Shown here piece by piece: positions 7,099-60,070 of a stretch of 64,000 nt of DNA (its first letter is position 1; each line of letters starts with the position of its first letter). This stretch comes from Leucoraja ocellata (Eukaryota), in the NCBI GenBank assembly GCA_036785375.1, contig JAWMAR010001106.1, positions 124,001 through 188,000 of the forward strand, in the 5' to 3' direction. The notes under the pieces are model-generated. The model saw only the letters and a program-made list of their open reading frames with translations. It was not told where the DNA came from and searched no databases. A program made the translations under genes and the position numbers.

Positions 7099-8982
7099 TC
7101 AGCATAATTTAAATAACATAACAATGCAATTCAGTGGATATTTTACCCCATTCATTAACTCCTCTTTGATTTTTTGCTGCGTTCCTGCATAAATGAATGG
7201 ATTTATACATGAACGCAAAAGCTGAAGCATAAATCCGCTTTCTTCCAACGTAAAATTTGAATCATTGAAGTTAGAACCCGAGAAATATCGAACCTTCGCA
7301 ATCCGAACATAAAGAAATGTGATGAAAACTAACACCCAGGACAGGATGGAACCGCAAGATATTAACAGGAGCAAAATGATGGATTTTCTCCGGTTTTCCA
7401 TTTCTGGGTCACATTGATTATCTCCGTTTCTGTTGGACATTAATCTCCTTCTAGAGAACATTGAATAGTAGTATCAGAAAGAATGGAAGGCATGGAGTTA
7501 TGATGCGGTGAATCCATTCACAGGCACCCCATGCAGGCAAGGTAGTGAAAGATAACTTTAATTTGCAGAACCAGCGGACGCCGTCAGTTATAAATGAAGG
7601 CTCGTATATAAAATACCATGGAATGTTTCTGACACAACTCACTGCACAAATTGTTACGATGACAATGACCGCTTTTTTCTCAGTGCAGTACTTTGCTTTC
7701 AGCTTCTGGAAACAAATGGCTATATATCGGTCAAGTGTGAACATCACTGTCACCCAGACTGCACAGTCTTAGATTCCATAAATTAGAACAAGGCTGACGC
7801 TGCAGACTGGAGTGATGGACATGAAGCTGAATGGGAAATATATACCTACCACTCGGTTAAATATCACAGCCGTGATAATGACTAAGAGATCGGTCACAGC
7901 CATAGCCACCAGGTAGCAAGTGATGCATTTGGAAAGGCCGCATCTTCCCAGGGACAGTACCACAATCACTGCCAGATTAGCTGTAGATGAAAAATAGCAA
8001 GTGCTAGTCAATGAATACATCCCAGACCTCAAACAACGGGGAACAAAAAAGCTAAAATCTCACCAGGTCTGTCCGTGTCAGTAAACAATGAACACCTTTA
8101 GCCTGATGTATCGCACCGACATTATTGCTCCCTCTCATCGATCCATTTCCACAACGGAATTTCTAACATCAGTTTCTATACAATGCTGCCATGAGCTTTG
8201 TTCCGTTACTGGCGGAGTTGAAACGAAACAAGGCGGAAACAAATCGTTTCAGATATCGTAGATATCATATCAAAGAATGTACAAAGTAATAGGGCCAATA
8301 GGACAACCATGCCATATACGCATTGTAATAACTATTTTGCAATTCATAGCCCCAATTAACAAAACCTGGTAGCAATACTATAAAACTAAGGATACAAATG
8401 GGAATAGAGCATGTTGGAAATACTTATCCGACGGTACAGCATTGGTGAAAGGACAAAATGTGTAGGAAATAACTTCAGATGCTGGTTTAAATCGAAGGTA
8501 GTCGCAAAATGCTGGAGTGACTGAGCGGGTCAGGCAGCATCTCAGATCAGCATCAGAGACATGCGTCCTGACCCGCTGAGTTACTCCAGCATTTTGTGTC
8601 TACCCATTGGTGAAAGGCGACGTTTCTGGACTGAGATCCTTCCTTGAAAGTGAGAATGTCAACTATTTTCCCTGTTTCGACAGAAGCTGATTGAACATGA
8701 TTATTTGCTTTATTTTCTGTTCTTCGATTTAATGATACACATCGGTAGTGGAACATTTCGGACGTCGTAATATATTAAATCGGGCGAAGGAAGTTAATAT
8801 ATGCCGTAATAATCATTGTTTCGCGAGTGGGGCATCACTTTCATTCAGAGAGGACGCTAGATTTACAATCGAACATTATAACCAGAGGAAATCACTAATA
8901 AAAACACTTTACCCGTAACTCCAATAACTCCCAGGGCTGGATAGTATATGGCAAATAGGAGACCTTCCGATATTCCATGCAT
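7099..8982 (-). pseudogene. G1: GPR139/GPR142-like class A GPCR pseudogene (exon 1 8913-8982, exon 2 7099-7980)
   Basis: Exon 1 encodes MHGISEGLLFAIYYPALGVIGVT and ends at a GTAAAG donor; acceptor is TCTACAG. Exon 2 has DRY and NPFIY motifs but carries a CAA>TAA stop in TM3 (7769-7771) and a 32-nt frameshifting deletion near 7454 (882 nt versus 914 nt in intact copies). Confidence 0.9.
8497..8604. repeat. Intronic inverted repeat made of two PLE-tail-derived segments (present in the introns of all copies; left arm truncated in G4)
   Basis: CAAAATGCTGGAGTGACTGAGCGGGTCAGG ... CCTGACCCGCTGAGTTACTCCAGCATTTTG. Confidence 0.75.
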
Positions 8983-10454
8983 GTTTATCAGAATTGAGAA
9001 CACATCTAACACTGCATGCAAAATGGTTTAACCTATAGACCCCAAGACAACCTCCGGGGAGTTACTTGGGTGGCTTGCTCTGTTAAAATAATAGCTGAAT
9101 TGAAGCAATCAGCTTTGCAAATGCCTCTCGGGATCATAGCGGGACACAAGAGACGGCATGTACAGTAACCTTGAGCAACACACGATGTGATGTGGCAACT
9201 CAGCTGGTCAGGCACCTTTTGAAAAGGGAAACGGACAAATGGCGTTTTTGGTCGGGACCTTTCTTCAGACTCAGACTGATTCTTAGAGTGGTAATAGACA
9301 CGCTGTATCTGAAGTGGGGTCCCGACCCTGAGCGTCACCTATCCTTGTTCTCCAGCGATGCTGTCTGATACGCTGAGTTACTCAGATTCAGATTCACATT
9401 CACATTTATTGTCACATGCACCAATTGAGGTACAGGGGTATTTGAGTTACCATGCGACCATACAATTAAAAGAACTCAACACAATTGAAAAGAACGACAT
9501 AACTTAACATAAATACCCACCGCAGTGATCACTGTGATGGAAGGTAATAAAGTTCAGTCAGTCTTCCTCCTTTTGTTCACCCGTGTTTGGGGTCTTGCAG
9601 TTCGCAGGTTCCCGCGGTTGGAGCGCACGAAGACAGTCTCCTGCAAAGGCCACCAACTCCTTGATGTTAGGCTGCAGTGCGGACTGAGATAGGATACCGA
9701 ACAAAATCGCATCTCCGTCGTAGTAATGCATTCGAAAAGGTTTTTCCCAACTCCACGCCCCCCCCCCCCCTCCCTCGCACATAAAACAAGCTAAAGAACA
9801 CTAAAAACATACATTTGGCACATCCAAAAAAACAACAAAGAAGGAAGGGACACACAGACTTTGCGCACTAATGTATATCCTCAGATAATATTTATCCTCA
9901 GTCTAACATTCCTCCTACCACTGACTCCCATGGCTATCTGGACTACACTTCTTCCCACCCTGCTTCCTGTAAGGACTCAATTTGCTCCGTCTACGCCGCA
10001 TCTGCTCCCAGGATGAGAGGTTCCACACCAGGGCATCTGAAATGTCCTAATTCTTCAGGGAACCGGGGTTCCCCTCCCCCACCATAGATGAGGCTCGCAC
10101 CAGGGTTTCTTGGGTCTCTTCCATACCCCGTAACAGTGCTCTATCTCCCCACCCCCCCTATCCCCCCCACTCGCAACTAGGGCACAATCCCTCTAGTCCT
10201 CACCTTTCACCCCACTAGCCGTCACATACAACAAGTAATCCTCCGTCAGTGTCGCCAGCCGTTGGAAAGGTGTTGCTGAAATGTTCCTGGAATATTATGT
10301 GCAGTATACAGTATTATGTCGCCATATCGTGAGTAAAATGTATCCAACAAATCGTTACGAATGTTTTTTTGTCGCGTATTGTCCTGGAGCAATTTATCAC
10401 CTTTGTGGTGTCTCCCCTTCGAGGATCGAACATTTAATGTTTATCCTCAGTCTG

Positions 10455-11515
10455 ACATTCCTCCTACCACTGACTCCCATGGCTATCTGGACTACACTTC
10501 TTCCCACCCTGCTTCCTGTAAGGACCCAATTTGCTCCGTCTACCGCATCTGCTCCCAGGATGAGAGGTTCCACACCAGGGTATCTGAAATGTCCTCATTC
10601 TTCAGGGAACCGGTGTTCCCCTCCCCCACCATAGATGAGGCTCGCACCAGGGTCTCTTGTGTCTCTTCCATACCCCGCAACAGTGCTCTCTCTCCCCACC
10701 CCCCCCCCCCCACTCGCAACAAGGACAGAGTCCCTCTAGTCCGCACCTTTTACCCCACTAGCCGTCACATACAACAAGTAATCAGTTTCGCCACCTCCAA
10801 CGTGACCCCACCACTCGCCACATATTCCCATCTACCCCCTCCCCCCGGCTGCCTTCCGCTCCCTCCGTAACTCCCTTGCAATTCTTCCCTTCCCTCCACT
10901 TACCACCCCCCCCCCCCCGGCACTTTCCCTTGCAACCGCAAAAGAGATAATACACTTGTCCCTTTACCTCCCCCCTCGACTCCATTCAAGGACCAAACAG
11001 TCGTTCCAGGTGCGACAGAAAATCTCCTGCATCTCCTCCAACCTCATCTATTGCGTCCGATGCTCGTGATGTCAGCTGATCTACATCGGTGAGACCAAGC
11101 GGAGGCTTGGCGATCGTTTCGCGGAACACCTCCGCTCGGTCCGCATTAACGAACCTGACCTCCCGGTGGCTCAGCACTTCAACTCCCCCTCCTATTCCGT
11201 ATCCGACCTCCCTGTCCTGGGCCTCCTCCACGGCCAGTGCGAGCACCACCGGAAATTGGAGGAATAGCACCGCATATTCCGCTTGGGGAGTCTGTATCCT
11301 GGTGGCATGAACATTGAATTCTCCCAATTTTGTTAGCCCTTCCTGTCTGCTCATTTTCCTATCTCTCCCTCAGCCCTCGGGCTCCTCCTCCTCCCCTTTC
11401 CTTACTCCCCCCCCCCCCCCCCCCCATCAGTCTGATGAAGGGTTTCGGTCCGAAACGTTGCCTATTTCCTTCGCTCCATAGATGCTGCTGTTTCTCCAGC
11501 ATTTTTGTGTATCTC
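10455..11515 (+). mobile_element. Penelope-like element 3' portion (RT C-terminus, GIY-YIG endonuclease, pLTR tail)
   Basis: PTDSHGYLDYTSSHPASCK and the GIY-YIG motif LIYC...YIGETKRRL. Tail CTGATGAAGGGTTTCGGTCCGAAACGTT. Confidence 0.85.
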
Positions 11516-12905: not shown

Positions 12906-13479
12906 CAAACTCAGATTCAATTTTAAGATTTAGATTCAATTTTAATAGTAAGATTAAACGAGAACTTACCAGTTTGAAGTTTGATCTGTATTTTATGAGG
13001 AGTTACGATGAGGGTTTACGTGAAGAAGCCCGTCCCAGGACGCGTTGCGGCATACTTCAAAGCAGCGGTGTGGAATCACAGATAGACACAAGTATTTGAA
13101 GTAACATAGTAAAGAATAAAGAGACATCAATTATCAGTTTGATCCATGTAATGAGGGTGGGAGCGGAGGGCACGTAAACCCTCATCGTAACTCCTCATAA
13201 AATACAGATCAAACTTCAAACTGGTAAGTTCTCGTTTAATCTTACTATTTTACTTCGGAGTCACGTGAGTGATTCCGTGAAGATTTCAAAGCTCTGTGAT
13301 TTCAAACCGTGTAACAGTTATACTACACTCACTGCCGAAGTCTTTGAGGGAGGAAGTGTGTATCGTAACCAACCAATGATTCTGTTATAGAAAACCCAAT
13401 GGTATTTTTACAATAGACACTGAAGAAATTTAAATGCTCCCTTTGGCTAATTTGAATATTTGCAGATTGGAATCTTTCC

Positions 13480-14300
13480 TGCAAATGAAAAAACAGGTTT
13501 TGTCAACAGTTTATAATAAATTATTTCTCTGAACGTTTTACCCCACTATTCTGCTGGAGCCAGGATGTGGTTTATAGGTACGTCCATTCTTTTGCCGTTG
13601 ACGTGGAAGCTTCTCCTGTGGGATGACAACTTTGACATGTTAGTTTTATCCCAGGAGCTTTAACCTGCTTGAGCCATTTCAAAAAAGGCTTGTTACCCGA
13701 CCACAAGGTTTTTTGTGACCAACCCACAAGGCTTTTCATCTCCCTCGCATAATTAGGTTGTGTCTATGTAAGGTAAAAAAGGGTCTTGGTACATTACCGT
13801 GTTTTCTGGCGGGTAAGCCCGGGTTTTATGACTGGATAAGGTATTCCTGGTCTGGTTTGACCATTCCCTGGACAAATGATAGATATCTGGTCTGAAGCTG
13901 TGAGCATGGTGTCCAGTTGAAATAGGAGTAGTGACTGGACCCTCTGTGCTGCTCAGTGCGCCTTCAACATATGTTTTTAGTGCATAGAAGGTTCAGGTTT
14001 AGGGCTCTGGCTGGTGAGTATCCCCTGAAGTATGGTTAACCATTGTGACATCCCACATATGGGTGTACTTGGTCTAGGGTTTTAGAATTTTAATACCCTT
14101 CAAATTTACCACCAGCCAGTGACCCCATACCTGTTGTCCTGAAGCTGTTTTGAAAAAGAACAGTCAGGGCAATTCTAGCTGTGTTGATGGTACTGTAGCC
14201 GAATCCTTCATCGTGATGACGGTTTTCCAGGAATTCCAGTTTGTAGTACCTGTATCGGATGAGTAGGTTTTCCCTGTATCCTTGCAGCACTTCTCTTGAT
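13480..14300 (-). pseudogene. Decayed tyrosine recombinase of the DIRS element
   Basis: Fragments GYSTINTARIAL, SAQRVQSL and the C-terminal (HSTR)-ASTSTAKRMDVPINHIL region; many frameshifts. Confidence 0.65.
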
Positions 14301-14857
14301 GCTGGACAAGTGTTGTAGTCCAGTGAATGTTCAAAAGGATGCTGACGTGGTGTTGATTGTTCAGAATAACAATCCCAGTCCCAGAGGCTTGCGCAGAATC
14401 TGCAGCTCAGGAGCTTATTTTCTCATGGCACAGTTGATTTGTGCCCGGCTCCGATTGTTAATAATCCTGGGTACTGGAAAAACACCATCCAAGTTCCAAC
14501 AATCATGTCATAGCGTAAGTTCTGAAACAGAATCCTTTTGTACTGTGCGTTGTTCTCGATTTGTGAGGCAGAAGGGAAAATACATAGAATTAATTTCACC
14601 AATGCAACATGAACGCATTTGTATATCAATATCAATATTGTTACAATATAAATACATTGTTGAATCACAACATGACCTATAGGTCAGAAAAGTTAATATA
14701 TATAGCTTACAAGCTTTCCGCTGGAACTATCTGTCCCAAAGAAAAAATATTTATATATATGAGGATTCCACTGCCCCAGGGTCTGGTTTCCCCCGCGACA
14801 TACATAGGACATCCCCGAACCCCTGGTGATATAGCATTGATGCAAATAATCGATATC

Positions 14858-14920
14858 AGATTCACATTCCATTTTAATTGTCATTGTCAGTGTGCAGTAC
14901 AGAGACAATGAAATGCATTA
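14858..14920 (-). mobile_element. 63-bp Rex1/Babar LINE 3'-end insertion inside the DIRS element
   Basis: Matches the LINE 3' end at 12930-12946 plus 17502-17542; flanked by an ATATC duplication at 14853-14857 and 14921-14925. Confidence 0.75.
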
Positions 14921-15670
14921 ATATCTGTTGCATCGTATAGCTTGATAGTTTTGTTAAACTTTATATGAAAACATCTAATTGATGTTGTCCTTAATTTTAT
15001 GTGACCTGGTGTCTGTCACTGTATTTTGCTTACCAGGCAGGTAAGTTGTTGATAGTCCAATACCTCTATGGATATACCATTGCCAAATTGTTTTGACCAA
15101 CTTGTCATATGATACCGACTTTATGCTGCCATATGGTTAATATAGGCCACCTCCATAGTGTAGTCTTATTTATACCCATACATGCAAGTGCTTAAACTCA
15201 TAAATTTCACCCGAGCATTTTTTAGATACTTAATGCCCAGTATAAGTGGTAACCCCACCACTGTCTTTCTGATATTATTTCAGTGGGTAACTTCATGAGA
15301 TGCTCAATGACAACCTATATGTTGTTTTTGATACTAACATCTGAATCATGTAGGCAGAAAATGGTACCATTTTTCCCCCAATTACTCTGTTATTTGTCGA
15401 GTAGTTGGTAGTTTGACCATTAATTTGTTCCTTGTTTGTGCCAATTCAACTATGTTGTCTCTTGGCAACATTAAAGTTACGTGGACTGAATTAATATGAA
15501 AGCCAAGATAGTCCAAGAAAGCGCTCTATTTGCTGGTAGGAACCAGACCCACCTACCTCCATGGTTATTGGCGGGGTTGTGGTTTTTCTTTTTCAATGTT
15601 CTTCTCTGTCGACGTGCTGGCGATGTTGGGGGGAGGCGCATTTTCCAGGGGGTCCGCTGCGGGCCCTGAC

Positions 15671-16658
15671 CTAAAAAGGTCTCTGGGGATAGTGCGGCCC
15701 CAAGCTTTGACCAGTCGCATATTCGGGACGCCGACTGGTAGATACAGTGGTGTGCTGCCGCCTGGGTGGAATGAAAAGCTTTGGTATGTTCGTCGCCGGT
15801 ACTGCCCTCATGAGGCTAAAGGTCTTGGACGCCTCATCCATCTCTTTTAGCTGTTTATTCAGGTCCTTCCCAAATAAGAAAGAGTCGGTCTCGACTGTTG
15901 GAACTTTGCATAACCCTGCAAACTTGGATTGAGGGCCGGCCTGATGTTCTCTCTTCCTGTGCCCGAATTGGTCCCCCCACATTGCCCCAGATTTGAGGAT
16001 TGAGGCTCTTTACTTTAAGAGCCTCATAATTGTCCGGGGCTGTGTGCTCCTCAAGCACTTGGGCGAGCACCTTCTCCTGAAGTGGCTTGTTGGAGAGATG
16101 GTTAATGCTGGCAGCCATCCTTGGCTCCAGCGGCGCTCCAACCTTTGGGGTAGCGACAAATCGGCTTACGACCCCCAGCAGCTCTTCCTGCACACCCTGC
16201 TCTCTTTCGACTCCTTCCGCCTGCCCCATGCTCAGACCAGCCCTGCCCTGGTCACCGATGCTAACCTCCCATTCCTGGTCCGAGGTCGCAAAGGGAGGTG
16301 CCGGACTCAGCACCATGGAGGGGGCGCCTGTCCTGTCTGTCCGAGAGCGCTGCTGCTCTCGGTAGATCATCCCCTCCAATAGCTGCTGGATGCAGCTTAG
16401 GCGGCTGTCTCTCCCCCGCTTTGGGGTGGACATTTCCCCCTCCGACGAGTCGGAGACGACCGGCCGTTTGGCTTCCTAGCCCCTTTCCCAGTCCGCCGTG
16501 CAGGCTATGGCGAGACTGGCTTGGCTCGGTCTCAGGGATAGCGAAAACGCTCTGCGAGCGACGCTGCCGCCGGTTGCTGCCCTGCTGGTAGAGTTGGAGC
16601 GGGGCAGTTCCTCTTTGCGAGTTTTGCGTTGTGTTCCTGAACTCTGTAATAAAAACAC
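15671..16658 (-). pseudogene. Frameshifted gag-like ORF1 of the DIRS element
   Basis: Consecutive minus-strand ORFs 16476-16658, 15855-16433 and 15671-15982 (PDNYEALKVKSLNPQIW...FLFGKDLNKQLKEM) at the ORF1 position of DIRS elements. Confidence 0.6.
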
Positions 16659-17621
16659 AACTGCAAACTTACCTTTGGAATGCCCAAGAGCTGCTCCTGC
16701 AGTTCAGGCGGCTGTCTCTCCCCCTCCTGGGTGGAGAGACGTCCCAGTCCGATGTTGGCTGTCTCTCTCCTCCACCGCCGGGTTTACACACATCCAGCCC
16801 GCTGCTCAGGCGCTAGCGGGCTGGCTCGGTCCCGGTGTCGGGTTTGTGGACCGCCCGCTAAGCGGTCCCACCCCCTGTTGCTGCCCAAAAAAACGTCCTT
16901 TCGTCGGGCAGGTGCAGCATTTCCCTCCCAGCCCGCAGCTGATGCTGACGGGCTTGGTGCAGAGTCGGGAGCGGGGCGCTGATTAGCGGTCCTCCCCTTC
17001 TCTATCTCTCTGTTCTCGGGCTGCTGCACTCGGGCTGCAGCGCACTCACGGCAGCACTGCACAGTGGGTCCCCTTAACGGCTCCGCAAAAGTCGGAAGCC
17101 TCCTCCCGCCCGCCTGCCTGCCTCACCTGGACAGTCCTTGAGGGCGAGCGAGGACTGAGGGGAACCCCCAGCACAGTGCTAGCCCCGCGCCGATGTCGCC
17201 CCTGTGGACAGTTACCGGCACCCGCACCATGGTCCGCCGGTGAGTCCTTGTTGCGTCCTCCCCTCCCGACAACGGAAAAACTCCTCCCGGAGTCCAAGGG
17301 GCCGCTTGCATGCCCTGCAGGGAAACAAGCAGACGCAAAGGCTGTAAAGTAAAGGTAAGTACTTACCTAAACTTTAGTTTTTCTTGTTTCTGCGGGAGCC
17401 CTGTCTCCCGCGCTGCCGCTTGGCCTGCTGAAACGTAATGCCGCAACGCGTCCTGGGACGGGCTTCTTCACGGAATCACTCACGTGACTCCGAAGTAAAA
17501 TTGTCATTGTCAGTGTACAGTACAGAGACAACGAAATGCATTTTGCATCTCCCTTGAAGAGCGACATAGCAAACGATTAGAATAAAAAAAAAATAAACGT
17601 GGGGGGGGTGGTGATTGGCAG

Positions 17622-19040
17622 TCACCGAGGTACGTTGTTGAGTAGAGTGACAGCCGCCGGAAAGAAGCTGCTCCTCGACCTGCTGGTTCGGCAACGGAGA
17701 GACCTGTAGCGCCTCCCGGATGGTAGGAGGGTAAACAGTCCATGGTTGGGGTGAGAGCAGTCCTTGTCGATGCTGAGCGCCCTCCGCAGACAGCGCTTGC
17801 TTTGGACAGATTCAATGGAGGGGAGCGTGGAACCGGTGATGCGTTGGGCAATTTTCACCACCCTCTGCAATGCCTTCCGGTCGGAGACAGAGCAGTTGCC
17901 ATACCATACTGTGATGCAGTTGGTAAGGATGCTCTCGATGGTGCAGCGGTAGAAGTTCACCAGGATCTGAGGAGACAGATGGACCTTCTTCAGTCTCCTC
18001 AGGAAGAAGAGACGCTGATGAGCCTTCTTGATCAGAGTAGAGGTATTGTGGGTCCAAGAGAGGTCATCGGAGATGTTGACTCCCAGGAACCTGAAGCTAG
18101 AAACACGTTCCACCTCCGTCCCGTTAATGTGGATGGGGGTGTGCGTGCCGCCTCTGGACTTCCTGAAGTCTACAATGAGCTCCTTGGTCTTCTTGGAGTT
18201 AAGGGCCAGGTTGTTGTCAGCGCACCATGCTGCTAAGTGCTGGACCTCCTCCCTGTAGGCCAGCTCATCGTTGTTGCTGATGAGGCCAATCACCGTTGTA
18301 TCATCTGCATACTTGATGATGGTGTTAGTACCATGTACAGGTGTGCAGTCATAGGTGAAGAGGGAGTAGAGGAGGGGGCTCAGCACACAGCCCTGAGGAA
18401 CGCCGGTGTTCAGGTTGAGGGTTGAAGAGGTGTGCATGTCTAACCTCACAGACTGGGGTCTGTTGGTTAGAAAGTCCAGTATCCAGTTGCAGAGGAAGGG
18501 GTCGATGCCCAGGTTACCGAGTTTGGTGATCAGTTTTGATGGAATAATGGTGTTGAATGCTGAGCTGTAATCGATGAACAGCATTCTTACATAAGTGTCT
18601 CTGTTGTCGAGGTGGAAGAGGGCGGAGTGAAGTGCCGTTGAGATGGCATCCTCCGTACTCCTGTTCTTGCGGTAGGCAAACTGATAGGGATCCAGTGTGG
18701 GGGGTAGGCAGCTTTTGAGGTGTGCCAGGACCAGCCTCTCGAAGCACTTGGTGATGATGGGGGTAAGTGCAACTGGGCGGAAGTCGTTGAGGCTTGCCGC
18801 AGTGGAGTGTTTTGGCACTGGCACGATGGAGGTGGCTTTAAGGCAAGTGGGGACAACTGCTTGGGCAAGTGACAGGTTGAAGATGTCAGTCCAGACATCT
18901 GTCAGCTGCGCAGCACAGGCCCTGAGCACGCGCCCGGGGATGCCGTCAGGGCCAGCAGCCTTACGTGCATTAGTCCTACTCAGTGCCACGTACACGTCGT
19001 AGGGGGTGAGTGTGAGGGGTTGGTGATCGGCAGGTAGCAC
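17622..19040 (-). CDS. LINE reverse transcriptase (Rex1/Babar type), uninterrupted but lacking the endonuclease (5' truncated)
   Basis: Motifs [45 protein letters not shown] and RFLGV, plus the Rex-type C-terminus SFFPAAV. Confidence 0.88.
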
Positions 19041-19094
19041 AGCCTTGGGATAAACTACGCCTACATAGGATGCACTACGCCTATATCCTATAAT

Positions 19095-21375
19095 TATATT
19101 AAAAGTAAAGGGGAAAAGGTTTTTTTAATGGTGGTATGGTCGTCAGCGCGTGGAGCCATAAGAGATGGACGAGGTCTTAAATGAATACCTGTCATCTTCA
19201 TTTACCATGGGGAAGTTTATACAAGGGAATTGGAGGAATAGTATAGGGACGTCCAGAAGCACACGGCCATTACGGCGAGGGGGTACTGGCAGTGTTGAGG
19301 AACGAATACGTGGATAACGGCCTGCCGAGATATACCATGAGGTTCCGTGGGGAGGAAGTATAGAAATGCCGGGGCCCTGGCAGAGGTGATTTGTATCTTC
19401 CTTCGCTAGAGGTGACGTCCTGGGCTATTGGAGCGTGGATAGCATTTGGCCTATATTGGGGAAGGACTGAAAGACAATCTGCGGATCGACCTTCTCGAGA
19501 GCGTAGTAAATGAATGTGAGAGGAATTTGACAGGCATGATCTATTTGCACTTACAACAGTCAGGACTAATTGGGAATAACCAGTGACCAATGCAGTTCTT
19601 TGGACATTGTTTACATGGACTTTACCAACGCATTTGCCAAGTTCCTTAAACGTAGGCTAAGATCTGGGATTCGGTGAGAGCTAACCAAATGGGTACATAA
19701 TTGGCTTGATGGTGGGTATCAGAAGGTGGTAGAGGAGAGTTGTTATCCAGGTAGTTTTCCAGATTGGAGGTTTATGGCAGGATCGGAGCTGGATCCGCTA
19801 GTGATGCCATGTTGATGCCATGTATGTTAATCATTCGGATTAGAAAACACTTCGCCGTATCAGAATTTTAACAGGCGACAATCAATGAGTTTGTGAGGCG
19901 ACTGCAATGGTAGCATTTCATTCGAGAGGGCTAGAATACAATAATAGAGATGTATTGCTGAGGCTTTATCAAGCACAGTATTGTGAGTAGTTTTGTGCCA
20001 AATCTGAAGAAGGCTGTGCTGGCCTTGGAGACGATCCCAGCAGGTTTACCAGAATGATTCCAGGAATAATTGTGTTAACATCTGATGAGCGTTTGTAGGC
20101 ACTAAGGCCTGTAATCTGGCGTTTAAAAGGATGTGACGGGACCTCATAAAAACTTAGACATGAGTAAAATGCCCGGTAGAATGAATGTGGAGAGGATGTT
20201 TCCAACAGTGGGAGAGTTGATGACCAGAGGCCATATACTCAGATTAAAAGGATGTGCCTTTAGAAAGGAGGTAAAAATGAATTTATTTCGTCAGAAGGTG
20301 GTGTGTCTGTGGAATTCATTACCACATGCGGCAGTGGAGGCCATCAATGACAGATTATTGATTAGTTAGGTTGGCAGGAGCTATGGGACGAAAGCGGGAG
20401 AATTGGGTTGAGAGCAAAAAGTCTGTTCTTTGAACGTATGAAGGTATGAGTTGAGTGGCGGAGAGGAATGAATGCTTAAACCACAACAAGATCTGCACCA
20501 ATTGGTGAATTGGATCATAGAATAACAGATGGAGAGGAACTCGAACGAGCATGAATTTATGCAGTTCAGGAAGTTAACCCAAGGCATGAAGTACACAATA
20601 AATGGCAGGGCCCAGGAGAATGTTGTGGAATTTTGACCGGAGATTCCATTATCCTAATGTCCATATTTCTTTTATCTAGCCAATCTCAGCAAATCTAAGG
20701 TTCCTTGCATAATAAGATATTTCATTTCCCACAATAATTAATAAATGCTGTCAGATGAAACCAGCTCAGTTATTAAGGATCTGTTTTCACGCTGTTTATT
20801 TCTATGAGTCCAGTAGCAAGTGCAGCGGATAAAAGTGAAACGATAATGTTGATACATTTGGATTTTCGGAACACATCTGACAGATTGCAGCATCAAACAT
20901 GATTATGGAAAATGAATGCTCGTCGTATACGAGATAACCTACTCGGATTAGCGGAGTTTGGCTACCTGACAAGAAATGGACCAGAGCATAATTTGGTCTA
21001 TTTTCCGATGGATAAATATAACAAGTGATGTGCCAGTGGTATAAGTGCATAAGTCTCAATATTATGTAACTTACACAAATGACTTAAATGAAAGCTGCAA
21101 ATGAGTGGTTGTTAAATTTGCCGATTGCCAATGACAGGTGGGAAGCTTAGTTGCAAAGAGGACAAAAGGCGGCATTGATAGTTAGATTTTAGGATGACAA
21201 ATTAAATTTTGAGTAAACTGCGATATAACCGAATTTTGAGATGCAAAGCAACCTGCCGCCTTTACACATGGTTCGCTGGGAATTAGTTTGCAAGCAGACA
21301 AAACATAATGATATTGGTTATTGTGAGCAAATGTAATGCTTTTGTTACATCGAGCATTGATAAGAAAAGGTGTGA
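19095..21375 (+). mobile_element. Old, fragmented CR1-like LINE remnants (copies at ~39400-41670, 55085-56865, 63362-64000; partial at 3690-4865, 31003-32060, 48807-49985)
   Basis: Decayed RT motifs (VLNEYLSS, VYMDF...AF) and a 3' region NVERMFP...TRGH.LR.KG...WNSLP. Confidence 0.65.
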
Positions 21376-27265: not shown

Positions 27266-27329
27266 ATCTCTTACCATCAACTCGTCTCTATCTTATTCTA
27301 TTTGGGGCTCTGTTTTGTGTATGTTTTCA

Positions 27330-28983: not shown

Positions 28984-29015
<32 letters not shown>

Positions 29016-44639: not shown

Positions 44640-44709
44640 CCGTAACTCCAATAACTCCCAGGACTGGATAGTAAATGGCAAATAGGAGACCTTCCGGTAT
44701 TCCATCCAT
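44640..44709 (-). CDS. G4 exon 1 (MDGIPEGLLFAIYYPVLGVIGVT)
   Basis: 70 nt, ATG start, GTAAAG donor; intron 782 nt. Confidence 0.85.

Positions 44710-47214: not shown

Positions 47215-47300
<86 letters not shown>
47215..47300 (+). repeat. (GATA)n microsatellite (shorter copy at 28965-29014)
   Basis: Direct reading of the sequence. Confidence 0.95.
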
Positions 47301-50300
47301 TTACTTCATCCCCTTATTCAGGGGAAATTCAGGTGTCCTTGCAGCACACTAATAAAAATATTCCAAACGCTAGTCCACAGCCTTCCCATTTTCACATACC
47401 CTACTCCCATTTTTCCCGTCTTGGCAATACACATCTTCCTGTCGCATTCCCACATATAGTTCCGAAGTTATTAATCCATTAAATTTTCAAAACAGCCCAA
47501 ACAAACTCACCATTTCGGAAAAAAAGTGACGCGACAATGAACTCGCAAGGCAGGACGGGACACTCCGGGAGGGAGGGGCACTCAAGCGCTCGCGGTGAAC
47601 GAGGAGTGGTGGCAGCTGCCGGCGCTCGACGCCCGGCAACAGTCGCCCGACGCCAGATTACCTGGTGGGGAGGGTGGTGTCTCGGGCCGTGCCCGGAGGG
47701 TGGGCCTGGGCTGGAGCCGATCCTGGTGCTGGAGCTGGAGTGAGGGCTTCGGATGGGGCCATGACCGGGGCTGACGGCTGGAGTTTACAGCCAGGGCCAG
47801 CCCGAGTTCGAGAACCAGGCCGAGTTCCTTTCTATTAAAATCTTTTTATTTATTTCCCCCCCCCCCAAAAAAAAAGCCAAAATAAAACATAAAAAACAGA
47901 CCAAATAGAATAATGATAAACATAACAATGGTATTGATACATAGGGATCAGTGTTACATTAATAACAGGCATAGCCTAATATGAGACCAGTGTCAAAATA
48001 CACAATGAATATAGACCTCCCGGTTTCTATGTAAATATAGTTAGATCTTTAAAATGAAACTTATAAATGTTAAAAAAAAAACCACACAGATAAAAAGACA
48101 AATAGAAAAAGAAAAAATGAAAGAAACAAACAACCCCCCCCCCCCTGAACTAAAGAAAGAAAAAAAAGAGAAGATTTGATAATAATAAAATACGAATAAA
48201 AATAAAATAAATAAAAACCAAAGCAAAGCTAAACCAAATCTGAACTGAAAATTTCAACAATGTAGGTCTGTTTGTCGTCAAATCCGTTCCACCCTATAGA
48301 GGTAAAATATATTTTTATAACGGTTAAAGAGGGAGCAATTTATGTTGTATGAAAATGTTCAATAAATTTTCCCCAAGTCTTAGCAAATTTAACCAAGGGT
48401 TCAACAGTGTCACTCCTGATTTTTTTTATAAACTTAAACATGATATCGTTTCCGAATACCACTGGAGTGTGGTCGGAAGGTTGGAGTCTTTCCATTTAAA
48501 TGAAATAGATCTTCTGGTGATTAATGTTGTAAAAGCAATCAACCGATGGTCGGGACGGGACAAATGAATAGAATCTAACATTGGTGGCCCAAAATTTACA
48601 GGTGTCGGGGCCCTTCTTCATACTCTAAGTCATAACTTCGACGTCTGAGTACGAATAAAGGTCTCGTTTCTAAATTCGTCTGCATATTCCCTCCACAGAT
48701 ACTGCCCGACTCATAGAGTTCCACCAGCATTTGTTCTTTTGTTCAAGATTCAAACATCTGGAGTTTTATTTTGTTTCCACGCGACAATGTGTGCGGTTCA
48801 ATCCACGAATGTGGAGAGGATGTTTCCACCAATGAGAGAATTGACCAGAGGCCATGTACTCAGATTAAAAGGATGTGCCTTTAGAAAGGAGATGAAAAGG
48901 AATTTATATCGTCAGAGGGCGGGGTGTCAGTGGAATGTATTATACCAAACGGCCGTGGAGGCCATCAATTACAGATTATTGATTAGTAAGTTTGGCAGGG
49001 GCTATGGGGCGAAAGCGGGAGAATTGGGTTGAGAGCAAATATTCTGTTCCTTGAAGGTGTGGCGCAGAGGAATGAATGCCTAAACCACAACAAGATCTTC
49101 ACCAATTGGGGAATTGGATCATAGGATAACAGATGGAGCGGGACTCGTACGAGCATGAAGTTATGCAGTTGAGGAAGTTAACCCAAGGCATGAAGTACAC
49201 AATAAATGGCAGGGCCCATGAGAATGTTGTCGAGTTTTGACCGGAGATTCCATTATCCTATCGTCCATATTTCTTTTATCTAGCCAATCTCAGCAAATCT
49301 AAGGTGCCTTCCGTAATATGATATTTCATTTCCCACAATAATTAATAAATACTGTCAGATGAAACCAGCTCAGTTTATGTGAAGGCTGTGTGTCCGTGCT
49401 GTTTAGTTCTTTGAGTCCAGTAGCAAGTGCAGCGGATAAATGTAAAACGATAATGTTGATACATTTGGATTTTCTGAACACATCTGATAGATTGCAGCAT
49501 CAAACATGATTATGGAAAATAAATGCTCGTCGTATACGAGATAACCTACTCGGATTAGTGGAGTTTGGCTACCTGACAAGAAATGGACCAGAGCATAATT
49601 TGGTCTATTTTCCGATGGATAAATATACCAAGTGATGTGCCAGGGGTATAAGTGCATAAGTCTCAATATTATGTAACTTACACAAATGACTTAAATGAAA
49701 GCTGCAAATGAGTGGTTGCTAAATTTGCCGATTGCCAATGACAGGTCGGAAACTTAGTTGCAAAGAGGACAACAGACAAAAGATAGTTAGATTTTAGGAT
49801 GACAAATTAAAATAAGAGTAAACTGTGAGATATAACCGAACTTTGAGATGGAAAGTAACCTGCCGCCTTTACACGTGGTTCGCTGGGAATTAGTTTGCAA
49901 GCAGGCCAAACATAGTATTATTGGTTATTGTGAGTAAATGTAATGCTTTTGTTACATCGAGCATTGATAAGAAAAGGTGTGATTTACAGTACTGATCACC
50001 TTTTTTAAGAATGCATGTAGACGTGTTGGAGGTACTTCAGAAAACATTTGCAGGGCATACACACTGAAGTCGAAAACGTAATAATAGACGATGCGGGATA
50101 AGACCTTGTATCCGGAGTGAAAGGCCTTTATTTACAAGGATGAAGAGTGTTTTATTGTCATATGCTCCTAAACTGAACAACGATACTCGTGCTTGCAGCA
50201 GCACAACATAATTTTAACATAGTAATCAGTAAACATCGTAATAAACAACACAATTATGTAAACGAACAATAATAGCGCAAAGACAACAACAACAAAAAAT

Positions 50301-51362
50301 AATGCCGTCTTTTCATGTACTTCGGAGCTTATTTAGTTTAGTTTAGGGATACAGCGCGGAATCAGGTCCTTCGGCCAACAGAGTCCGCACCATCCAGCGA
50401 TCCCCGCGTATTAACACTATCCTACACACACGAGGACCAATTTACAATTTCCACAAACAGCAAACTAATTAACCTGTATACCTCTACGTCTTCGGAGTGT
50501 GGAGAGAAACCGAAGATCTCGGAGAAAACCCACGCGTTCACGGAGAAAACGTGGAAACTCCGCACATACAGCACCCGTCGCCGCGATCGACACCGGGTCT
50601 CCGGCGCTGCGCTTATTTGGCAGCAGTGTTTAATGATCTGATCGTAGAATGAAGGAAACTGCTCCCGCCCCGAGACGTTACAGTTTTGAAGTTCCTATGC
50701 TTTCTTCCACATGGCAGGAATTAAATAAGCGAGTGGCCAGTGTGGAGCGGGCCTCTGATCATGCGGGCTGCATTATAGAAACATAGAAATTACATGCAGG
50801 AGTAGGCCATTCGGCCCTTCGAGCCTGCACCGCCATTCAATATGATCATGGCTGATCATCCAACTCAGTATCCCGTACCTGCCTTCTCTCCATACCCCCT
50901 GATCCCCTTAGCCACAAGGACCACATCTAACTCCCTCTTAAATATAGCCAATGAACTGGCCTCAACTACCCTCTGTGGCAGAGATTATCAAGGACCAAGA
51001 AAGGAGTCGTCAGTACTTCAGTTCGCACTTTCTCGCATTTCAATACACTCTTTACCCCATTCTGCTCTTTTGCATTTGCTGCATTTATCTGTCATTGCTT
51101 GATATTGTTTAGTCTGTGAGCTGCATGTCAATAAGCAATTCATTGTAATCTCGCGTGACAACAATAATTTAATCTTGTGCAATTTGATTTTCATCTAGTG
51201 CTGTGTTTTTTTTCTCAATGAGCCGTGGGTCTTTGAAAATATCTTCTTAAAATGATACTTAAAGCAAATAGTAAATATTATTTTTTGAATATTAAAGGTG
51301 GAGGGAGGTGGATGATTAATACAAAGTTTATGAATAATTACAGGGAAAAGCGGAAAAACTGA

Positions 51363-51887
51363 AGAACATTCTTGCCATAGAGGGTGTACAGAGTATGTTC
51401 CCCACACTGATTCCTAGTATGTCAGGACTTTCATATGAAGAATGACTGGGTAGAGTCGGCTTGTACTCGCTAGAAGTTTGAAGATTGAGGGCGAATCTTA
51501 TAGAAACTTATAATATTCTTAAGACGTTGGACAGGCTAGATGCAGGATGGTTGTTCCCGATGTTGGGGAAGTCCAGAACAAGGGGTCACAGTTTAATGAT
51601 AAAGGGGAAATATATTAGGACCGAGATGAGAAAATCATTTTTTACACAGAGAGTGGCGAATCTCTGGAATTCTCTGCCACAGAATGTAGTTGAGGCCAGT
51701 TCGTTGGCTATATTTAAGAAGGAGTTAGATGAGGCCCTTGTGGCTAAAGGGATCAGGGAGTATGGAGAGAAGGCAGGTACAGGATACCGAGTTGGATGAT
51801 CAGCCATGATCATATTGAATGGCGGGCGGGCTCGAACGGCCGAATGGCCTACTCCTGCACCTATTTTTCTATGTTTCTGTGATTCTA
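51363..51887 (+). mobile_element. CR1 LINE 3' fragment (duplicate of 6246-6770)
   Basis: Same sequence at offset 45117. Confidence 0.88.
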
Positions 51888-52215
51888 TTACAGATAGATC
51901 AACGGTGATACTGCTTGACGGGGGAAACTTGGTGATTGAATGGCGTTCTCTTGCTCCGAGTTCATCTGTCTGTACATGGTGAACGAGGCATGAGACATAC
52001 ATTTCCGAGCCCGTGTCAATCTCAATTTGTTGGCCAGTGTGTACTTTGCCTCTAAACAATCAAGTGCTCGATTTCCAACGTCTCCATGCCCGTCCATGTA
52101 TGTGAATTCACTTTATATGGAACATCTGAGATTGAGTTAATTCACGATTCGAACTGGAGACAGTAACTGGATCAACGGATATAATACATCATAGGATGAT
52201 TAAATGGAAATCAAG

Positions 52216-53097
52216 TCAGCATAATTTAAATAACATAACAATGCAATTCAGTGGATATTTTACCCCATTCATTAACTCCTCTTTGATTTTTTGCTGCGTT
52301 CCTGCATAAATGAATGGATTTATACATGAACGCAAAAGCTGAAGCATAAATCCGCTTTCTTCCAACGTAAAATTTGAATCATTGAAGTTAGAACCCGAGA
52401 AATATCGAACCTTCGCAATCCGAACATAAAGAAATGTGATGAAAACTAACACCCAGGACAGGATGGAACCGCAAGATATTAACAGGAGCAAAATGATGGA
52501 TTTTCTCCGGTTTTCCATTTCTGGGTCACATTGATTATCTCCGTTTCTGTTGGACATTAATCTCCTTCTAGAGAACATTGAATAGTAGTATCAGAAAGAA
52601 TGGAAGGCATGGAGTTATGATGCGGTGAATCCATTCACAGGCACCCCATGCAGGCAAGGTAGTGAAAGATAACTTTAATTTGCAGAACCAGCGGACGCCG
52701 TCAGTTATAAATGAAGGCTCGTATATAAAATACCATGGAATGTTTCTGACACAACTCACTGCACAAATTGTTACGATGACAATGACCGCTTTTTTCTCAG
52801 TGCAGTACTTTGCTTTCAGCTTCTGGAAACAAATGGCTATATATCGGTCAAGTGTGAACATCACTGTCACCCAGACTGCACAGTCTTAGATTCCATAAAT
52901 TAGAACAAGGCTGACGCTGCAGACTGGAGTGATGGACATGAAGCTGAATGGGAAATATATACCTACCACTCGGTTAAATATCACAGCCGTGATAATGACT
53001 AAGAGATCGGTCACAGCCATAGCCACCAGGTAGCAAGTGATGCATTTGGAAAGGCCGCATCTTCCCAGGGACAGTACCACAATCACTGCCAGATTAG
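52216..53097 (-). pseudogene. G5: GPCR pseudogene, near-identical to G1, exon 1 deleted
   Basis: Same TAA stop and 32-nt deletion as G1. A 199-nt deletion at 53983/53984 (TTAC microhomology) removes exon 1. Confidence 0.9.
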
Positions 53098-56000
53098 CTG
53101 TAGATGAAAAATAGCAAGTGCTAGTCAATGAATACATCCCAGACCTCAAACAACGGGGAACAAAAAAGCTAAAATCTCACCAGGTCTGTCCGTGTCAGTA
53201 AACAATGAACACCTTTAGCCTGATGTATCGCACCGACATTATTGCTCCCTCTCATCGATCCATTTCCACAACGGAATTTCTAACATCAGTTTCTATACAA
53301 TGCTGCCATGAGCTTTGTTCCGTTACTGGCGGAGTTGAAACGAAACAAGGCGGAAACAAATCGTTTCAGATATCGTAGATATCATATCAAAGAATGTACA
53401 AAGTAATAGGGCCAATAGGACAACCATGCCATATACGCATTGTAATAACTATTTTGCAATTCATAGCCCCAATTAACAAAACCTGGTAGCAATACTATAA
53501 AACTAAGGATACAAATGGGAATAGAGCATGTTGGAAATACTTATCCGACGGTACAGCATTGGTGAAAGGACAAAATGTGTAGGAAATAACTTCAGATGCT
53601 GGTTTAAATCGAAGGTAGTCGCAAAATGCTGGAGTGACTGAGCGGGTCAGGCAGCATCTCAGATCAGCATCAGAGACATGCGTCCTGACCCGCTGAGTTA
53701 CTCCAGCATTTTGTGTCTACCCATTGGTGAAAGGCGACGTTTCTGGACTGAGATCCTTCCTTGAAAGTGAGAATGTCAACTATTTTCCCTGTTTCGACAG
53801 AAGCTGATTGAACATGATTATTTGCTTTATTTTCTGTTCTTCGATTTAATGATACACATCGGTAGTGGAACATTTCGGACGTCGTAATATATTAAATCGG
53901 GCGAAGGAAGTTAATATAAGCCGTAATAATCATCGTTTCGCGAGTGGGGCATCACTTTCATTCAGAGAGGACGCTAGATTTACTTGGGTGGCTTGCTCTG
54001 TTAAAATAATAGCAGAATTGAAGCAATCAGCTTTGCAAATGCCTCTCGGGATCATAGCGGGACACAAGAGACGGCATGTACAGTAACCTTGAGCAACACA
54101 CGATGTGATGTGGCAACTCAGCTGGTCAGGCACCTTTTGAAAAGGGAAACAGACAAATGGCGTTTTTGGTCCGGACCTTTCTTCAGACTCAGACTGTTTC
54201 TTAGAGTGGTAATAGACACGCTGTATCTGAAGTGGGGTCCCGACCATGAGCGTCACCTACCCTTGTTCTCCAGCGATGCTGTCTGATACGCTGAGTTACT
54301 CAGATTCAGATTCAGATTCACATTTATTGTCACATGCACCGATTGAGGTACAGTATTTGTAGTAGTGTGATTTTTGATATTGTATATCTCCATACCTCCA
54401 GATTCACGGCCACTTTCGTCCCATCTGTTATCAGGCAACTGAACCATCCTACCGCAACCTGCGAGCAGTCCAGAAGTATTATCTACCACAACCACCACCA
54501 ATATCCAACATGCACTCAAATTCATTTAAACCATCTCCGCCACCTCCCTCCCCTTTCTTGATCTCACCGCCGCCATTACAGGAGATAGACTATGGACTGG
54601 CATCTATTACAAACCCACTGATTCCCACAACTGTCTCGACTACATTTCTTCTCACCCTGCTTCCTATAAATACTTTATCTCCTTTTCCCCGTTTCTCCGT
54701 CTATGCCGCATCTGCGCCCAAGACATAATAGGGCACCTGATGAGTCCTCAATTCTTTAGTGAACAGGGAACGCCTCTTCCATCATAGACGAGACCCTCGC
54801 ACGTGTATCCTCGTTGCTCTGCAAATCCGCCCTTGCCCCCCTCGCCGCCCCTAGTCCTAACAGTTTTAGAGTCCATCTTGGCCTTGCATCTCACCCCATC
54901 GGCCGTCGCGTACAACACGGAATCCTCCGACTTTTACGCCACCTCCAACTGGATCCTAGCACGAGTCACCTATTTCAATCTCCACCCCTTTCCAACTTCC
55001 GCAGAGACACTTCTCTCCGCAACTCCCTGGTTAATCCTCCCTTCCCACTCAAACTACGCCTATATCCTATAATTATATTAAAAGTAAAGGGGAACTGTTT
55101 TTTTTAATGGTGGTATGGTCGTCCACGCGTGGAGCCATAAGAGATGGACGAGGTCTTAAATGAATACCTCTCATCTTCATTTACCATGGGGAAGTTTATA
55201 CAAGGGAATTGGAGGAATAGTATAGGGACGTCCAGAAGCACAGGCCATTACGGCGAGGGGGTGCCGGCAGTGTTGAGGAACGAATACGTGGATAACGGCC
55301 TGCAGAGATATACCGTGAGGTTCCGTGGAGAGGAAGTATAGAAATGCCGGGAGCATGGCAGAGGTGATTTGTATCTTCCTTCGCCAGAGGTGACGTCCTC
55401 GGCTATTGGAGCGTGGATAGCATTTGGCCTATATTGGGGAAGGACTGAAAGACAATCTGCGGATCGACCTTCTCGAGAGCGTAGTAAATGAATGTGAGAG
55501 GAATTTGACAGGCATGATCTATTTGCACTTATAACAGTCAGGACTAATTGGGAATAGCCAGTGACCAATGCAGTTCTTTGGACATTGTTTATGTGGACTT
55601 TAGCAACTCATTTGTCAAGTTCCTTAAACGTAGGCTAAGATCTGGGATTCGGTGAGAAGTAACCAAATGGGTACATAATTGGCTTGATGGTGGGTATCAG
55701 AAGGTGGTAGAGGAGAGTTGTTATCCAGGTAGTTTTCCAGATTGGAGGTTTATGGCAGGATCGGAGCTGGATCCGCTAGTGATGCCATGTTGATGCCATG
55801 TATGTTAATCATTCGGATTAGAAAACACTTCGCCGTATCAGAATTTTAACAGACGACAATCAATGAGTTTGTGAGGCGACTGCAATTGTAGCATTTCATT
55901 CGAGAGGGCTAGAATACAATAATAGAGATGTATTGCTGAGGCTTTATCAAGCACAGTATTGTGAGTAGTTTTGTGCCAAATCTGAGGAAGGCTGTGCTGG

Positions 56001-58369: not shown

Positions 58370-60070
58370 TCAGCATTATTTAAATAACATAACAATGAAA
58401 TTCAGTGGATGTTTTACCCCACTCATTAACTGCTCTTTGATTTTTTGTTGCGTTCCTGCATAAATGAATGGATTTATACATGAACTCAAAAGCTGAAGCA
58501 TATATCCGCTTTCTTCCAACGTAAAATTTGAATCATTGAAGTTAGAACCCGAGAAATATCGAACATTCGCAATCCGAACTTAAAGGAACGTGACGAAAGG
58601 TAACGCCCAGGACAGGATGAAACCGCAAGATATTAACAGGAGCAAAACAATGGATTTTCTCCGGTTTTCCATTTCTGGATCACATTGATTATCTCCGTTT
58701 CTGTTGGACATTAATCTCCTTCTAGTTCTCATTGCAGCTAGAATATGTCTGACGGTGAGTACATTGAAAAGTAGTATCAGAAAGAATGGAAGGCATGGAG
58801 TTAAGATGCGGTGAATCCAATCAAAGGCACCCCATGCAGGCACGGTAGTGAAAGATAACTTTATTTGGCAGATCCAGCGGACGCCGTCAATTATAAATGA
58901 AGGCTCGTATGTAAAATGCCTTGGAATGTTTCTGACACAACTCACTGCACAGATTGTTACGATGACAATGACCGCTGTTTTCTCAGTGCAGTACTTTGCT
59001 TTCAGCTTCTGGCAACAAATGGCTATATATCGGTCAAGTGTGAACACCACTGTCACCCAGACTGCACAGTCTTGGATTCCATCAATTAGAACAAAGCTGA
59101 CGCTGCAGACTGGAGTGATGGACATGAAGCTGAATGGGAAATATATACCTACCACTCGGTTAAATATCACAGCCGTGATAATGACTAAGAGATCGGTCAC
59201 AGCCATAGCCACCAGGTAGCAAGTGATGCATTTGGAAAGGCCGCACCTACCTCGGGACAGTACCACGATCACAGCCAGATTAGCTGTAGATGAAAAATCG
59301 CAAGTGCTAGTCAATGAATACATTCCAGACCTCAAACAACGAGGAACAAAAAATCTAAAATCTCATCAGGTCTGTCCGTGTCAGTAAACCATGAATACCA
59401 TTAGCCTGATGAATCGCACCGACATTATTGCGCCCTCTCATCGATCCATTTCCACAACGGAATTTCTAACAGCAGTTTCAATACACTTAAGGATACAAAT
59501 AGGAATAGAGCATGTTGGAAATACTTATCCGACGGGACAGCATTGGTGAAAGGACAAAATATGTAGGAAAGAACTACAGATGCTGGTTTAAATCGAAGGT
59601 AGACGCATAATGGTGGAGCGACTCAGCGGGCCAGGCAGCATCTCAGATCAGCATCAGAGACATGCGTCCTGACCCGCTGAGTTACTCCAGCATTTTGTGT
59701 CTACCCATTGGTGAAAGGCGATGTTGCTGGACTAGGAGTGAGAATGTCAACTCTTTTCCCTTTTTCGACAGAAGCTGATTGAACATGAATATTTCCTTTA
59801 TTTTCTGTTCTTCGATTTAATGATACACATCGGTAGTAGAACATTTCTGACGTCGTAATATATTAAATCGGGCGAAGGAACTTCATATAAGCCGTAATAA
59901 TCATCGTTTCGCGAGAGGTGCATCACTTTCATTCAGAGAAGACGCTAGATTCACAATCGAACATTATAACCAGAGGAAATCTCTAATAAAAACACTTTAC
60001 CCGTAACTCCAATAACTCCCAGGACTGGATAGTAAATGGCAAATAGGAGACCTTCCGGTATTCCATGCAT
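58370..60070 (-). pseudogene. G6: GPCR pseudogene or truncated gene (exon 1 60001-60070, exon 2 58370-59283)
   Basis: Full-length 914-nt exon 2, but a TAT>TAA stop at 58580-58582 (end of TM6) removes TM7. A second TAA lies two codons before the ancestral stop. Confidence 0.88.

Follow-up and report, generated by a model that had tools for sequence, protein, structure and literature searches.

A multi-copy elasmobranch receptor family of the GPR139/142 branch with a putative sensory role, represented by a tandem array in Leucoraja ocellata

We analyzed a 64,000-nucleotide (nt) window of the Leucoraja ocellata contig JAWMAR010001106.1, whose coordinates are used throughout, and found a tandem array of six minus-strand receptor copies (A to F) within 7099-60070 (tblastn, self-BLAST, and exact gene models). 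[quoted passage not shown] Across the array and its relatives we could observe how the genes are built, that copies have been gained and lost, that purifying selection acts, and that the cytoplasmic half is conserved while the outer pocket varies. The family is chemoreceptor-like in its evolution, its pocket being hypervariable and its expansion lineage-specific and of the birth-and-death type, but it belongs to no named chemoreceptor family, and its sensory role is putative.

Size and distribution of the family

The query of all homology searches was the in-frame part of copy C exon 2 (34063-34971), which recovered 1645 proteins at E <= 1e-3; the taxonomy given here rests on the best 120 of these 1645 homologues. 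All 120 were elasmobranch (11 genera) and 60-74% identical to the query, with two lower exceptions, and most carried the automatic name 'probable G-protein coupled receptor 139'. The horn shark Heterodontus francisci contributed 74 of the 120, located on five contigs (53 on one contig of 59.5 Mb), and these represented 68-74 distinct sequences after clustering at 90-99% identity, a count that is a lower bound and covers one neighbourhood of the family. An exhaustive search yielded 114 clusters (50% identity) at E <= 1e-30. The lineage expansion put forward in the original prediction was therefore borne out, with at least 68 distinct sequences in the horn shark alone; the known catshark chemosensory repertoire is given as 65 genes in total (PMC6368271). 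In about 28 of the 120 database models the N-terminus was incorrect or absent, the break usually falling where the intron lies, which indicates that the 70-nt first exon is often missed by annotation.

Receptor copies in the array

The gene model has a first exon of 70 nt and a second of 914 nt, separated by a phase-1 GT-AG intron that measures 717-932 nt, and encodes 327 amino acids (aa). The intron lies directly before the Asn (1.50) of transmembrane helix (TM) 1, so that TM1 is split, and the exon-2 acceptors are at 7980 (A), 24093 (B), 34973 (C), 43857 (D), 53097 (E), and 59283 (F). Copies B, C, and D are intact, and A, E, and F are broken.

7099-7980, minus strand: copy A exon 2, pseudogene with a codon-94 stop and a 32-nt frameshifting deletion (gene model)
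8913-8982, minus strand: copy A exon 1, 70 nt; intron 7981-8912 (gene model)
23180-24093, minus strand: copy B exon 2, intact (gene model, Pfam)
25014-25083, minus strand: copy B exon 1; intron 920 nt (gene model)
27336-27524, plus strand: remnant G, TM7 and helix 8, other subfamily (tblastn, self-BLAST)
34060-34973, minus strand: copy C exon 2, intact (gene model, homology searches)
35691-35760, minus strand: copy C exon 1; intron 717 nt (gene model)
42944-43857, minus strand: copy D exon 2, intact and, of B, C, and D, the richest in private amino-acid changes (gene model)
44640-44709, minus strand: copy D exon 1; intron 782 nt (gene model)
52216-53097, minus strand: copy E exon 2, pseudogene with the same sequence as A exon 2 (gene model, block comparison)
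58370-59283, minus strand: copy F exon 2, pseudogene with stops at codons 258 and 326 (gene model)
60001-60070, minus strand: copy F exon 1; intron 717 nt (gene model)

Six same-strand two-exon receptors had been predicted; the number and the common strand held, whereas two exons were found in five of the six, copy E lacking exon 1. The very short N-terminus without a sequon was also as described, since the hydrophobic TM1 window starts inside the first ten residues and no N-x-S/T occurs there; the sole sequons of the array proteins lie in extracellular loop (ECL) 3 (N273, plus N276 in B and C). Exon-2 DNA identity was 94.8-97.2% for all copy pairs other than A/E, and the window array is therefore one young sub-branch, by itself not a diverse repertoire.

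Relationship to known receptors

The array proteins are class A (rhodopsin-like) GPCRs by their sequence features. Their sole Pfam match at E <= 0.01 was 7tm_1, whose score of 78.4 bits against a cut-off of 30.5 excludes chance, the DRY and NPFIY motifs are present in the translations, and the structure model of copy C was a confident seven-transmembrane fold (predicted local distance difference test score 86, Z 24-26 to class A structures). A 50-sequence family profile ranked GPR139 as the best solved relative (78.4 bits; next 60.9; CCR1 60.7), and the top Atlas clusters also pointed to the GPR139/142 branch, so that the predicted affinity holds in the broad sense of GPR139 being the nearest characterised receptor. 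When a single copy was compared with solved structures (single-sequence PDB search), TRHR ranked first and GPR139 scored just 23.3 bits; TRHR as nearest relative was superseded by the family profile. The fold search was rejected as evidence of relationship, as dozens of peptide receptors lay at Z 24-26 without discrimination (GPR139 at rank 17, Z 25.0 against a top of 26.4).

GPR139 and GPR142 are vertebrate orphans activated by L-Trp and L-Phe. Like GPR139 (PMC7318219), the array genes consist of two exons, and their intron may lie at the same codon as in GPR139; the window copies carry Y/H/W at the positions of F109, H187, and W241. Orthology to GPR139 or GPR142 was nevertheless rejected on the scores and the intervening clades, the tree containing no true GPR139/142, and the L-Trp/L-Phe site is not kept. 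Copy C scored 23.3 bits to GPR139 versus 138.2 and 125.6 to two non-mammalian orphans, and identity to GPR139 in the structural alignment was 21%, the yardstick for GPR139 orthology being the 70% identity between human and zebrafish. Further differences are the replacement of N271 by S/F, R244 by F/V, and P6x50 by L, and the near-invariant TM3 and ECL2 cysteines of the family, of which the one in TM3 has no counterpart in the aligned GPR139 sequence. GPR139 shows high conservation and is restricted to the central nervous system, while the elasmobranch family is multi-copy and variable.

The named chemoreceptor families share with this family tandem birth-and-death evolution, pseudogenes, and pocket diversification (OR, TAAR, V1R/ORA, T2R). 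Olfactory receptors (ORs) have an intronless coding region and an N-terminal sequon, whereas the array genes have an intron splitting TM1, no N-terminal sequon, and no match to 7tm_4. V1R/ORA and T2R were rejected for want of any match to their Pfam profiles, and TAAR because the family profile best matched GPR139, with no TAAR among the best 60 of 509 profile matches. The predicted position outside OR/TAAR/V1R/T2R is thus upheld, 7tm_1 being the only Pfam match. By sequence, an MRGPR or formyl-peptide receptor (FPR) identity was also rejected, neither being the nearest characterised relative; their functional analogy is a separate matter. The window proteins had no match to Srw (PF10324), and two look-alike Atlas clusters carried Srw on 17% and 42% of members.

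Origin and single-copy relatives

We built an IQ-TREE phylogeny of 73 rows chosen from 412 fetched proteins plus the three window copies. The expansion formed a clade of 46 rows (97/92), 22 of which were taken as chondrichthyan from their tree position, sister to an amphibian and sturgeon clade (99/98), and the window copies grouped with two Narcine proteins (100/96). Subfamilies of the expansion were common to sharks and batoids, which indicates that the expansion is old and still turning over. Among the sequences placed in the tree, the family nests in no receptor clade with a known ligand, in line with its proposed separateness.

The sister clade, hereafter the P0233 group after its salamander member (P0233, P0389-P0408), was found once per genus in 20 amphibian genera and sturgeon, forming one 90%-identity cluster per genus in 21 genera, and its 25 matches included no amniote or teleost. 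It resembles the expansion in its profile (profile-profile E 1.5e-56) and very short N-terminus, but differs in being single copy with a nearly invariant GPR139-like pocket (F3x33, W6x48, K6x51, N7x38). A second, low-copy group, named after its coelacanth member P0225 (P0225, P0247, P0271-P0388), occurred in sharks, ray-finned fishes, amphibians, and reptiles, with no mammal or bird among the named matches listed, and fell outside the expansion in the tree, its own shark members included. GPR139 was the best solved relative of both single-copy sister profiles. Mis-predicted P0225-group models break at the same residue before N1.50 as the array family, which points to an intron in common with the expansion. 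Two models of this group (P0274, P0372) are named TMEM183A isoforms, suggesting that the gene adjoins TMEM183A. Non-mammalian GPR139-like orphans have been named GPR210A/B (PMC6504862) and NMOGPR / Orphan 139-like (PMC5207463 Table 1, after Yun et al. 2015), and the P0225 group is probably the gene behind one of these names. These orphans belong to the same GPR139 branch as the expansion but are low-copy genes, and the available text of PMC6504862 and PMC5207463 makes no mention of a shark expansion of them.

The single-copy amphibian genes begin about a dozen residues before the TM1 Tyr-Pro, and an N-terminal sequon was present in 1 of 36 scorable P0225-group proteins. The short unglycosylated N-terminus, which the original prediction had counted among chemosensory hallmarks, is therefore an ancestral trait and not diagnostic.

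Pocket variation and selection

Activation by L-Trp and L-Phe needs F3x33, H5x43, W6x48, and N7x38 (PMC5430874), and R6x51 is also counted into the GPR139 site (PMC8807744). Copies B, C, and D have Y at 3x33, keep H5x43 and W6x48, and carry S/F/S at 7x38 and F/F/V at 6x51, respectively; with N7x38 and R6x51 replaced, the L-Trp/L-Phe pocket of the mammalian receptors that had been invoked is not kept in the array. N7x38 was present in 13 of the 120 near paralogues, where a basic 6x51 was not among the five commonest residues, while the P0233 group had F3x33 in 21/21, W6x48 in 20/21, N7x38 in 21/21, and K6x51 in 21/21.

We then compared mean entropy (bits) at 54 outer-TM sites, 80 inner-TM sites, and 14 further transmembrane sites that line the pocket in the published GPR139 structure (PMC8807744). 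Values are given in the order pocket, other outer-TM, inner-TM. The three values were 1.57, 1.00, and 0.50 in the 120 near paralogues (pocket versus outer-TM, P = 0.008) and 2.87, 2.20, and 0.97 in 51 distant paralogues (P = 0.002). The pattern was reversed in the P0233 group (21 sequences; 0.16, 0.39, and 0.48), where the pocket was least variable, and in the second single-copy group (47 sequences; 0.51, 0.93, and 0.62). By this measure the elasmobranch receptors combine a hypervariable pocket with a conserved cytoplasmic half, whereas the pocket of the single-copy sister is conserved, and the diversified pocket expected of a small-molecule sensing family was recovered across the family as variability above that of neighbouring outer-TM sites.

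The ratio of nonsynonymous to synonymous divergence (dN/dS) among B, C, and D was 0.17, 0.27, and 0.36 (Fisher P <= 0.003), as is seen for genes under purifying selection, and the intact copies are so classed. Amino-acid differences among these copies fell in the extracellular half in 14 of 21 cases (119 of 327 sites, P = 0.005), compared with 6 of 22 synonymous-only codons, and 3 of the 14 pocket sites differed (P = 0.053).

Functional interpretation

In the reading that we favor, the ancestor would have been a single-copy orphan receptor of the GPR139/142 branch, surviving as one conserved gene in amphibians and sturgeon, and in elasmobranchs it would have undergone birth-and-death evolution via segmental tandem duplication. 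The canonical transmembrane pocket of each paralogue may accommodate its own set of water-borne ligands, either small molecules of polar or aromatic character or short peptides, and the paralogues may signal through one common G protein, putatively Gq/11 by analogy with GPR139. They would act in chemosensory cells that face the environment (in olfactory epithelium, gill, and gut, and as taste or solitary chemosensory cells), and the family would serve as a combinatorial chemical-sensing repertoire. The evolutionary pattern gives about an even chance, in our estimate, that the paralogues differ in the external small molecules or peptides they recognise and share a G protein for signalling in chemosensory cells. 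More tentatively, and with the balance tilted against it, the family could be an undescribed vertebrate chemoreceptor family from the GPR139/peptide-receptor branch, independent of nematode srw, expressed in scattered olfactory or taste neurons of elasmobranchs, and outnumbering the known OR, TAAR, V1R, and V2R genes together in some species.

The FMRFamide/myosuppressin receptor branch also holds GPR139/142 (PMC8514136), and the nematode srw chemoreceptors are a high-turnover expansion from relatives of these peptide receptors, with variable pockets and proposed environmental sensing (PMC2576165). Lineage-specific class A expansions of lophotrochozoans likewise show variable pockets and have been proposed to sense the environment (PMC11886862). 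The window protein has no Srw Pfam match, and the elasmobranch family is an independent vertebrate expansion, analogous and not orthologous.

Several points weigh against a chemosensory repertoire. The pocket was mapped through a hidden Markov model alignment to GPR139 that leaves out ECL2 residues; the entropy contrast sets paralogues against orthologues and treats sites and related sequences as independent; and the region boundaries are the analyst's choice and the counts small. Relaxed constraint would raise pocket entropy too, and dN/dS was 0.67-0.71 for pairs among D, F, and A, not distinguishable from 1. No exact match to the consensus of the O/E-type promoter motif lay upstream of any copy (1 match in the window versus 3.8 expected). 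In a catshark brain and olfactory library, no GPCR is given among the 50 most specific genes (PMC11979771), although this list is weak evidence because V2Rs, which are GPCRs too, are likewise absent from it. For sharks, expression of OR genes and of some V2R genes is shown in spleen, gut, testis, or rectal gland (PMC11979771), so the evolutionary pattern fixes no tissue, and tandem duplication in batoids is reported to scale with genome size generally (bioRxiv 2025.06.08.657570).

The main rival to a chemosensory repertoire is that the receptors are immune, barrier, or somatosensory sentinels of leukocytes, mast-like cells, or sensory ganglia, which would detect microbial peptides, irritants, or damage metabolites and might be a functional stand-in for the MRGPR and FPR arrays of bony vertebrates. 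Those arrays have tandem turnover, a variable pocket, and a short N-terminus, the same signatures that sentinels predict here. Cartilaginous fishes are described as being without MAS1/MRGPR genes (PMC8455134), and shark OR-like genes are reported to be expressed in spleen and stomach (PMC11979771). However, the closest solved relative is the neuronal GPR139 (78.4 bits) and not the chemoattractant receptor CCR1 (60.7), and we regard sentinels as unlikely, if still a serious candidate. Mostly neutral copy-number drift, with unequal crossing-over in repeat-rich regions leaving most copies redundant or decaying, would fit the duplication of whole 6-16 kb units together with their transposons, the three broken copies among six, the dN/dS of the D/F/A pairs, and the scaling of tandem arrays with batoid genome size (bioRxiv 2025.06.08.657570). 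It is hard to square with dN/dS of 0.17-0.36 among intact copies, with dozens of intact divergent paralogues and subfamilies common to sharks and batoids, or with the concentration of variation in the pocket, where it exceeds that at adjacent outer-TM sites (P = 0.008 and 0.002), and we consider it improbable. Very improbable, finally, is a set of receptors that, as GPR139/142 themselves do, serve an endogenous neuropeptide or amino-acid signal of the brain or of endocrine tissue and were multiplied for reasons of dosage or regional expression: the GPR139-branch ancestry, the aromatic 3x33, H5x43, and W6x48 of the window copies, and the match of the structure model to peptide-receptor folds are consistent with it, but N7x38 occurs in 13/120 near paralogues against 21/21 in the amphibian/sturgeon sister, none of the five commonest residues at 6x51 is basic, against K in 21/21, and endogenous-peptide receptors are argued to show low gene turnover (PMC2576165).

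Prior knowledge and implications

No description of the elasmobranch expansion was found in the literature searched, in which most subscription journals were outside the scope and broad queries were seen in their top results only. Shark chemoreceptor surveys were queried with known families (PMC6368271, PMC11979771), and the string 'GPR' has 0 occurrences in the accessible text of PMC11979771. A batoid tandem-gene survey names SUCNR1, Pcdh, and V2R, the sole 'GPR' in its accessible text being GPR91 (bioRxiv 2025.06.08.657570), and the accessible supplements of the whale shark and little skate papers do not mention GPR139. The GPR142 orthogroup of the whale shark paper (70 proteins, 35 taxa; PMC8455134 supplement) is too small to hold the expansion. 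The same supplement contains OG0000181, a 7tm_1 orthogroup of 199 proteins from 17 taxa in which no human gene name was found, and which may be an unverified candidate for the elasmobranch receptor family.

Databases mislabel the family as GPR139, and at least about 70 distinct members in one shark sit under the automatic label 'probable GPR139'. For elasmobranchs, surveys that queried known families give some 65 chemosensory receptor genes (PMC6368271) and describe GPCRs as few (PMC8455134). If the family is sensory, the elasmobranch chemoreceptor repertoire could be twice its reported size, and one more receptor branch would have been recruited to chemoreception in vertebrates; if it acts in olfactory or taste neurons, the view of a shark nose relying on V2Rs alone would be revised. 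If immune, it would add a new sentinel system to those of jawed vertebrates, in their earliest-branching lineage. A simple route to the ancestral ligand may be offered by the frog sister gene, which is conserved and single-copy.

Pseudogenes and copy number

A 199-nt deletion at 53983/53984 removed exon 1 and the splice donor of copy E. Exon 2 of A and E was identical over 882/882 nt, including the codon-94 stop and the 32-nt deletion, so the three pseudogenes derive from two inactivations; the original statement that half of the copies are pseudogenised is correct as a count (3/6) but does not represent three independent events. The surrounding blocks (1-8866 and 45316-53983) differed by 13 mismatches in about 8,550 aligned bases, and because of this near-identity A/E may be a very recent duplication or an uncollapsed haplotype. 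The second possibility, in which a single locus is represented twice, by A and by E with the respective flanks as its two haplotypes, and the real copies number 4 or 5, bears on the copy count alone and not on the receptor family. It would accord with the few mismatches and with an assembly gap of 337 N at 1883-2219 inside block A, which is 99.5% identical to 45316-53983, yet E differs by two deletions, the one of 199 nt and another of about 2.8 kb further upstream, lacks a 6.2-kb insertion present at 12912-19073, and the partner copies B and F are just 96.9% identical; on balance we think such an artefact unlikely, though not negligible.

Formation of the array and surrounding repeats

Self-BLAST found a same-strand match elsewhere in the window for 88% of its length. 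The 3' flanks fell into two classes, A/C/E (92.5-99.8% identity) and B/D/F (93.7-95.5%), with 87.7-89.7% between classes, which resolves the array into a two-gene unit repeated three times with its transposons duplicated along, the duplicated units measuring 6-16 kb.

1-64000, no strand assigned: segmental repeat, two-gene unit in three copies, [A,B] [C,D] [E,F] (self-BLAST, flank comparison)

The divergent seventh remnant that had been noted does exist, but is on the plus strand, is confined to TM7 and helix 8, and comes from a different subfamily. Remnant G was 82% identical to a Heptranchias paralogue and 60% to the array copies, and lies at the B-C junction inside a segment (27331-27889) that occurs once in the window and is absent at the equivalent junctions before A and E. 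Probably a neighbouring gene in the opposite orientation was once severed by a duplication boundary, which left this remnant. Synonymous divergence among B, C, and D (0.065-0.094) exceeded the intron p-distance (0.046-0.061), and the few informative exon-2 sites conflict, which together suggest patchy gene conversion.

The 6.2-kb segment at 12912-19073, which occurs once in the window, contains a long interspersed nuclear element reverse transcriptase (RT) frame on the minus strand (17625-19124, stop-free over 500 aa; RVT_1 113.9 bits, ALKBH8_N 57.3 bits). Decayed minus-strand frames at 13000-16700 presumably derive from a DIRS-type retrotransposon, which they resemble in Gag, RT/RNase H, and recombinase pieces; those at 14093-16668 had no Pfam match, and Rfam gave 0 matches. 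Penelope-like fragments on the plus strand (26340-27005, 37303-37689, and 61590-62009, with similar ones at about 10250-11500) showed weak GIY-YIG matches below the cut-off, and lie upstream of several receptor copies, duplicated with the units. Downstream of the genes are inverted repeat fragments of 209-317 nt that are 88-92% identical, as at 5660-5867 / 6554-6761, with further copies near 22593-22908, 33513-33727, and 50777-51884.

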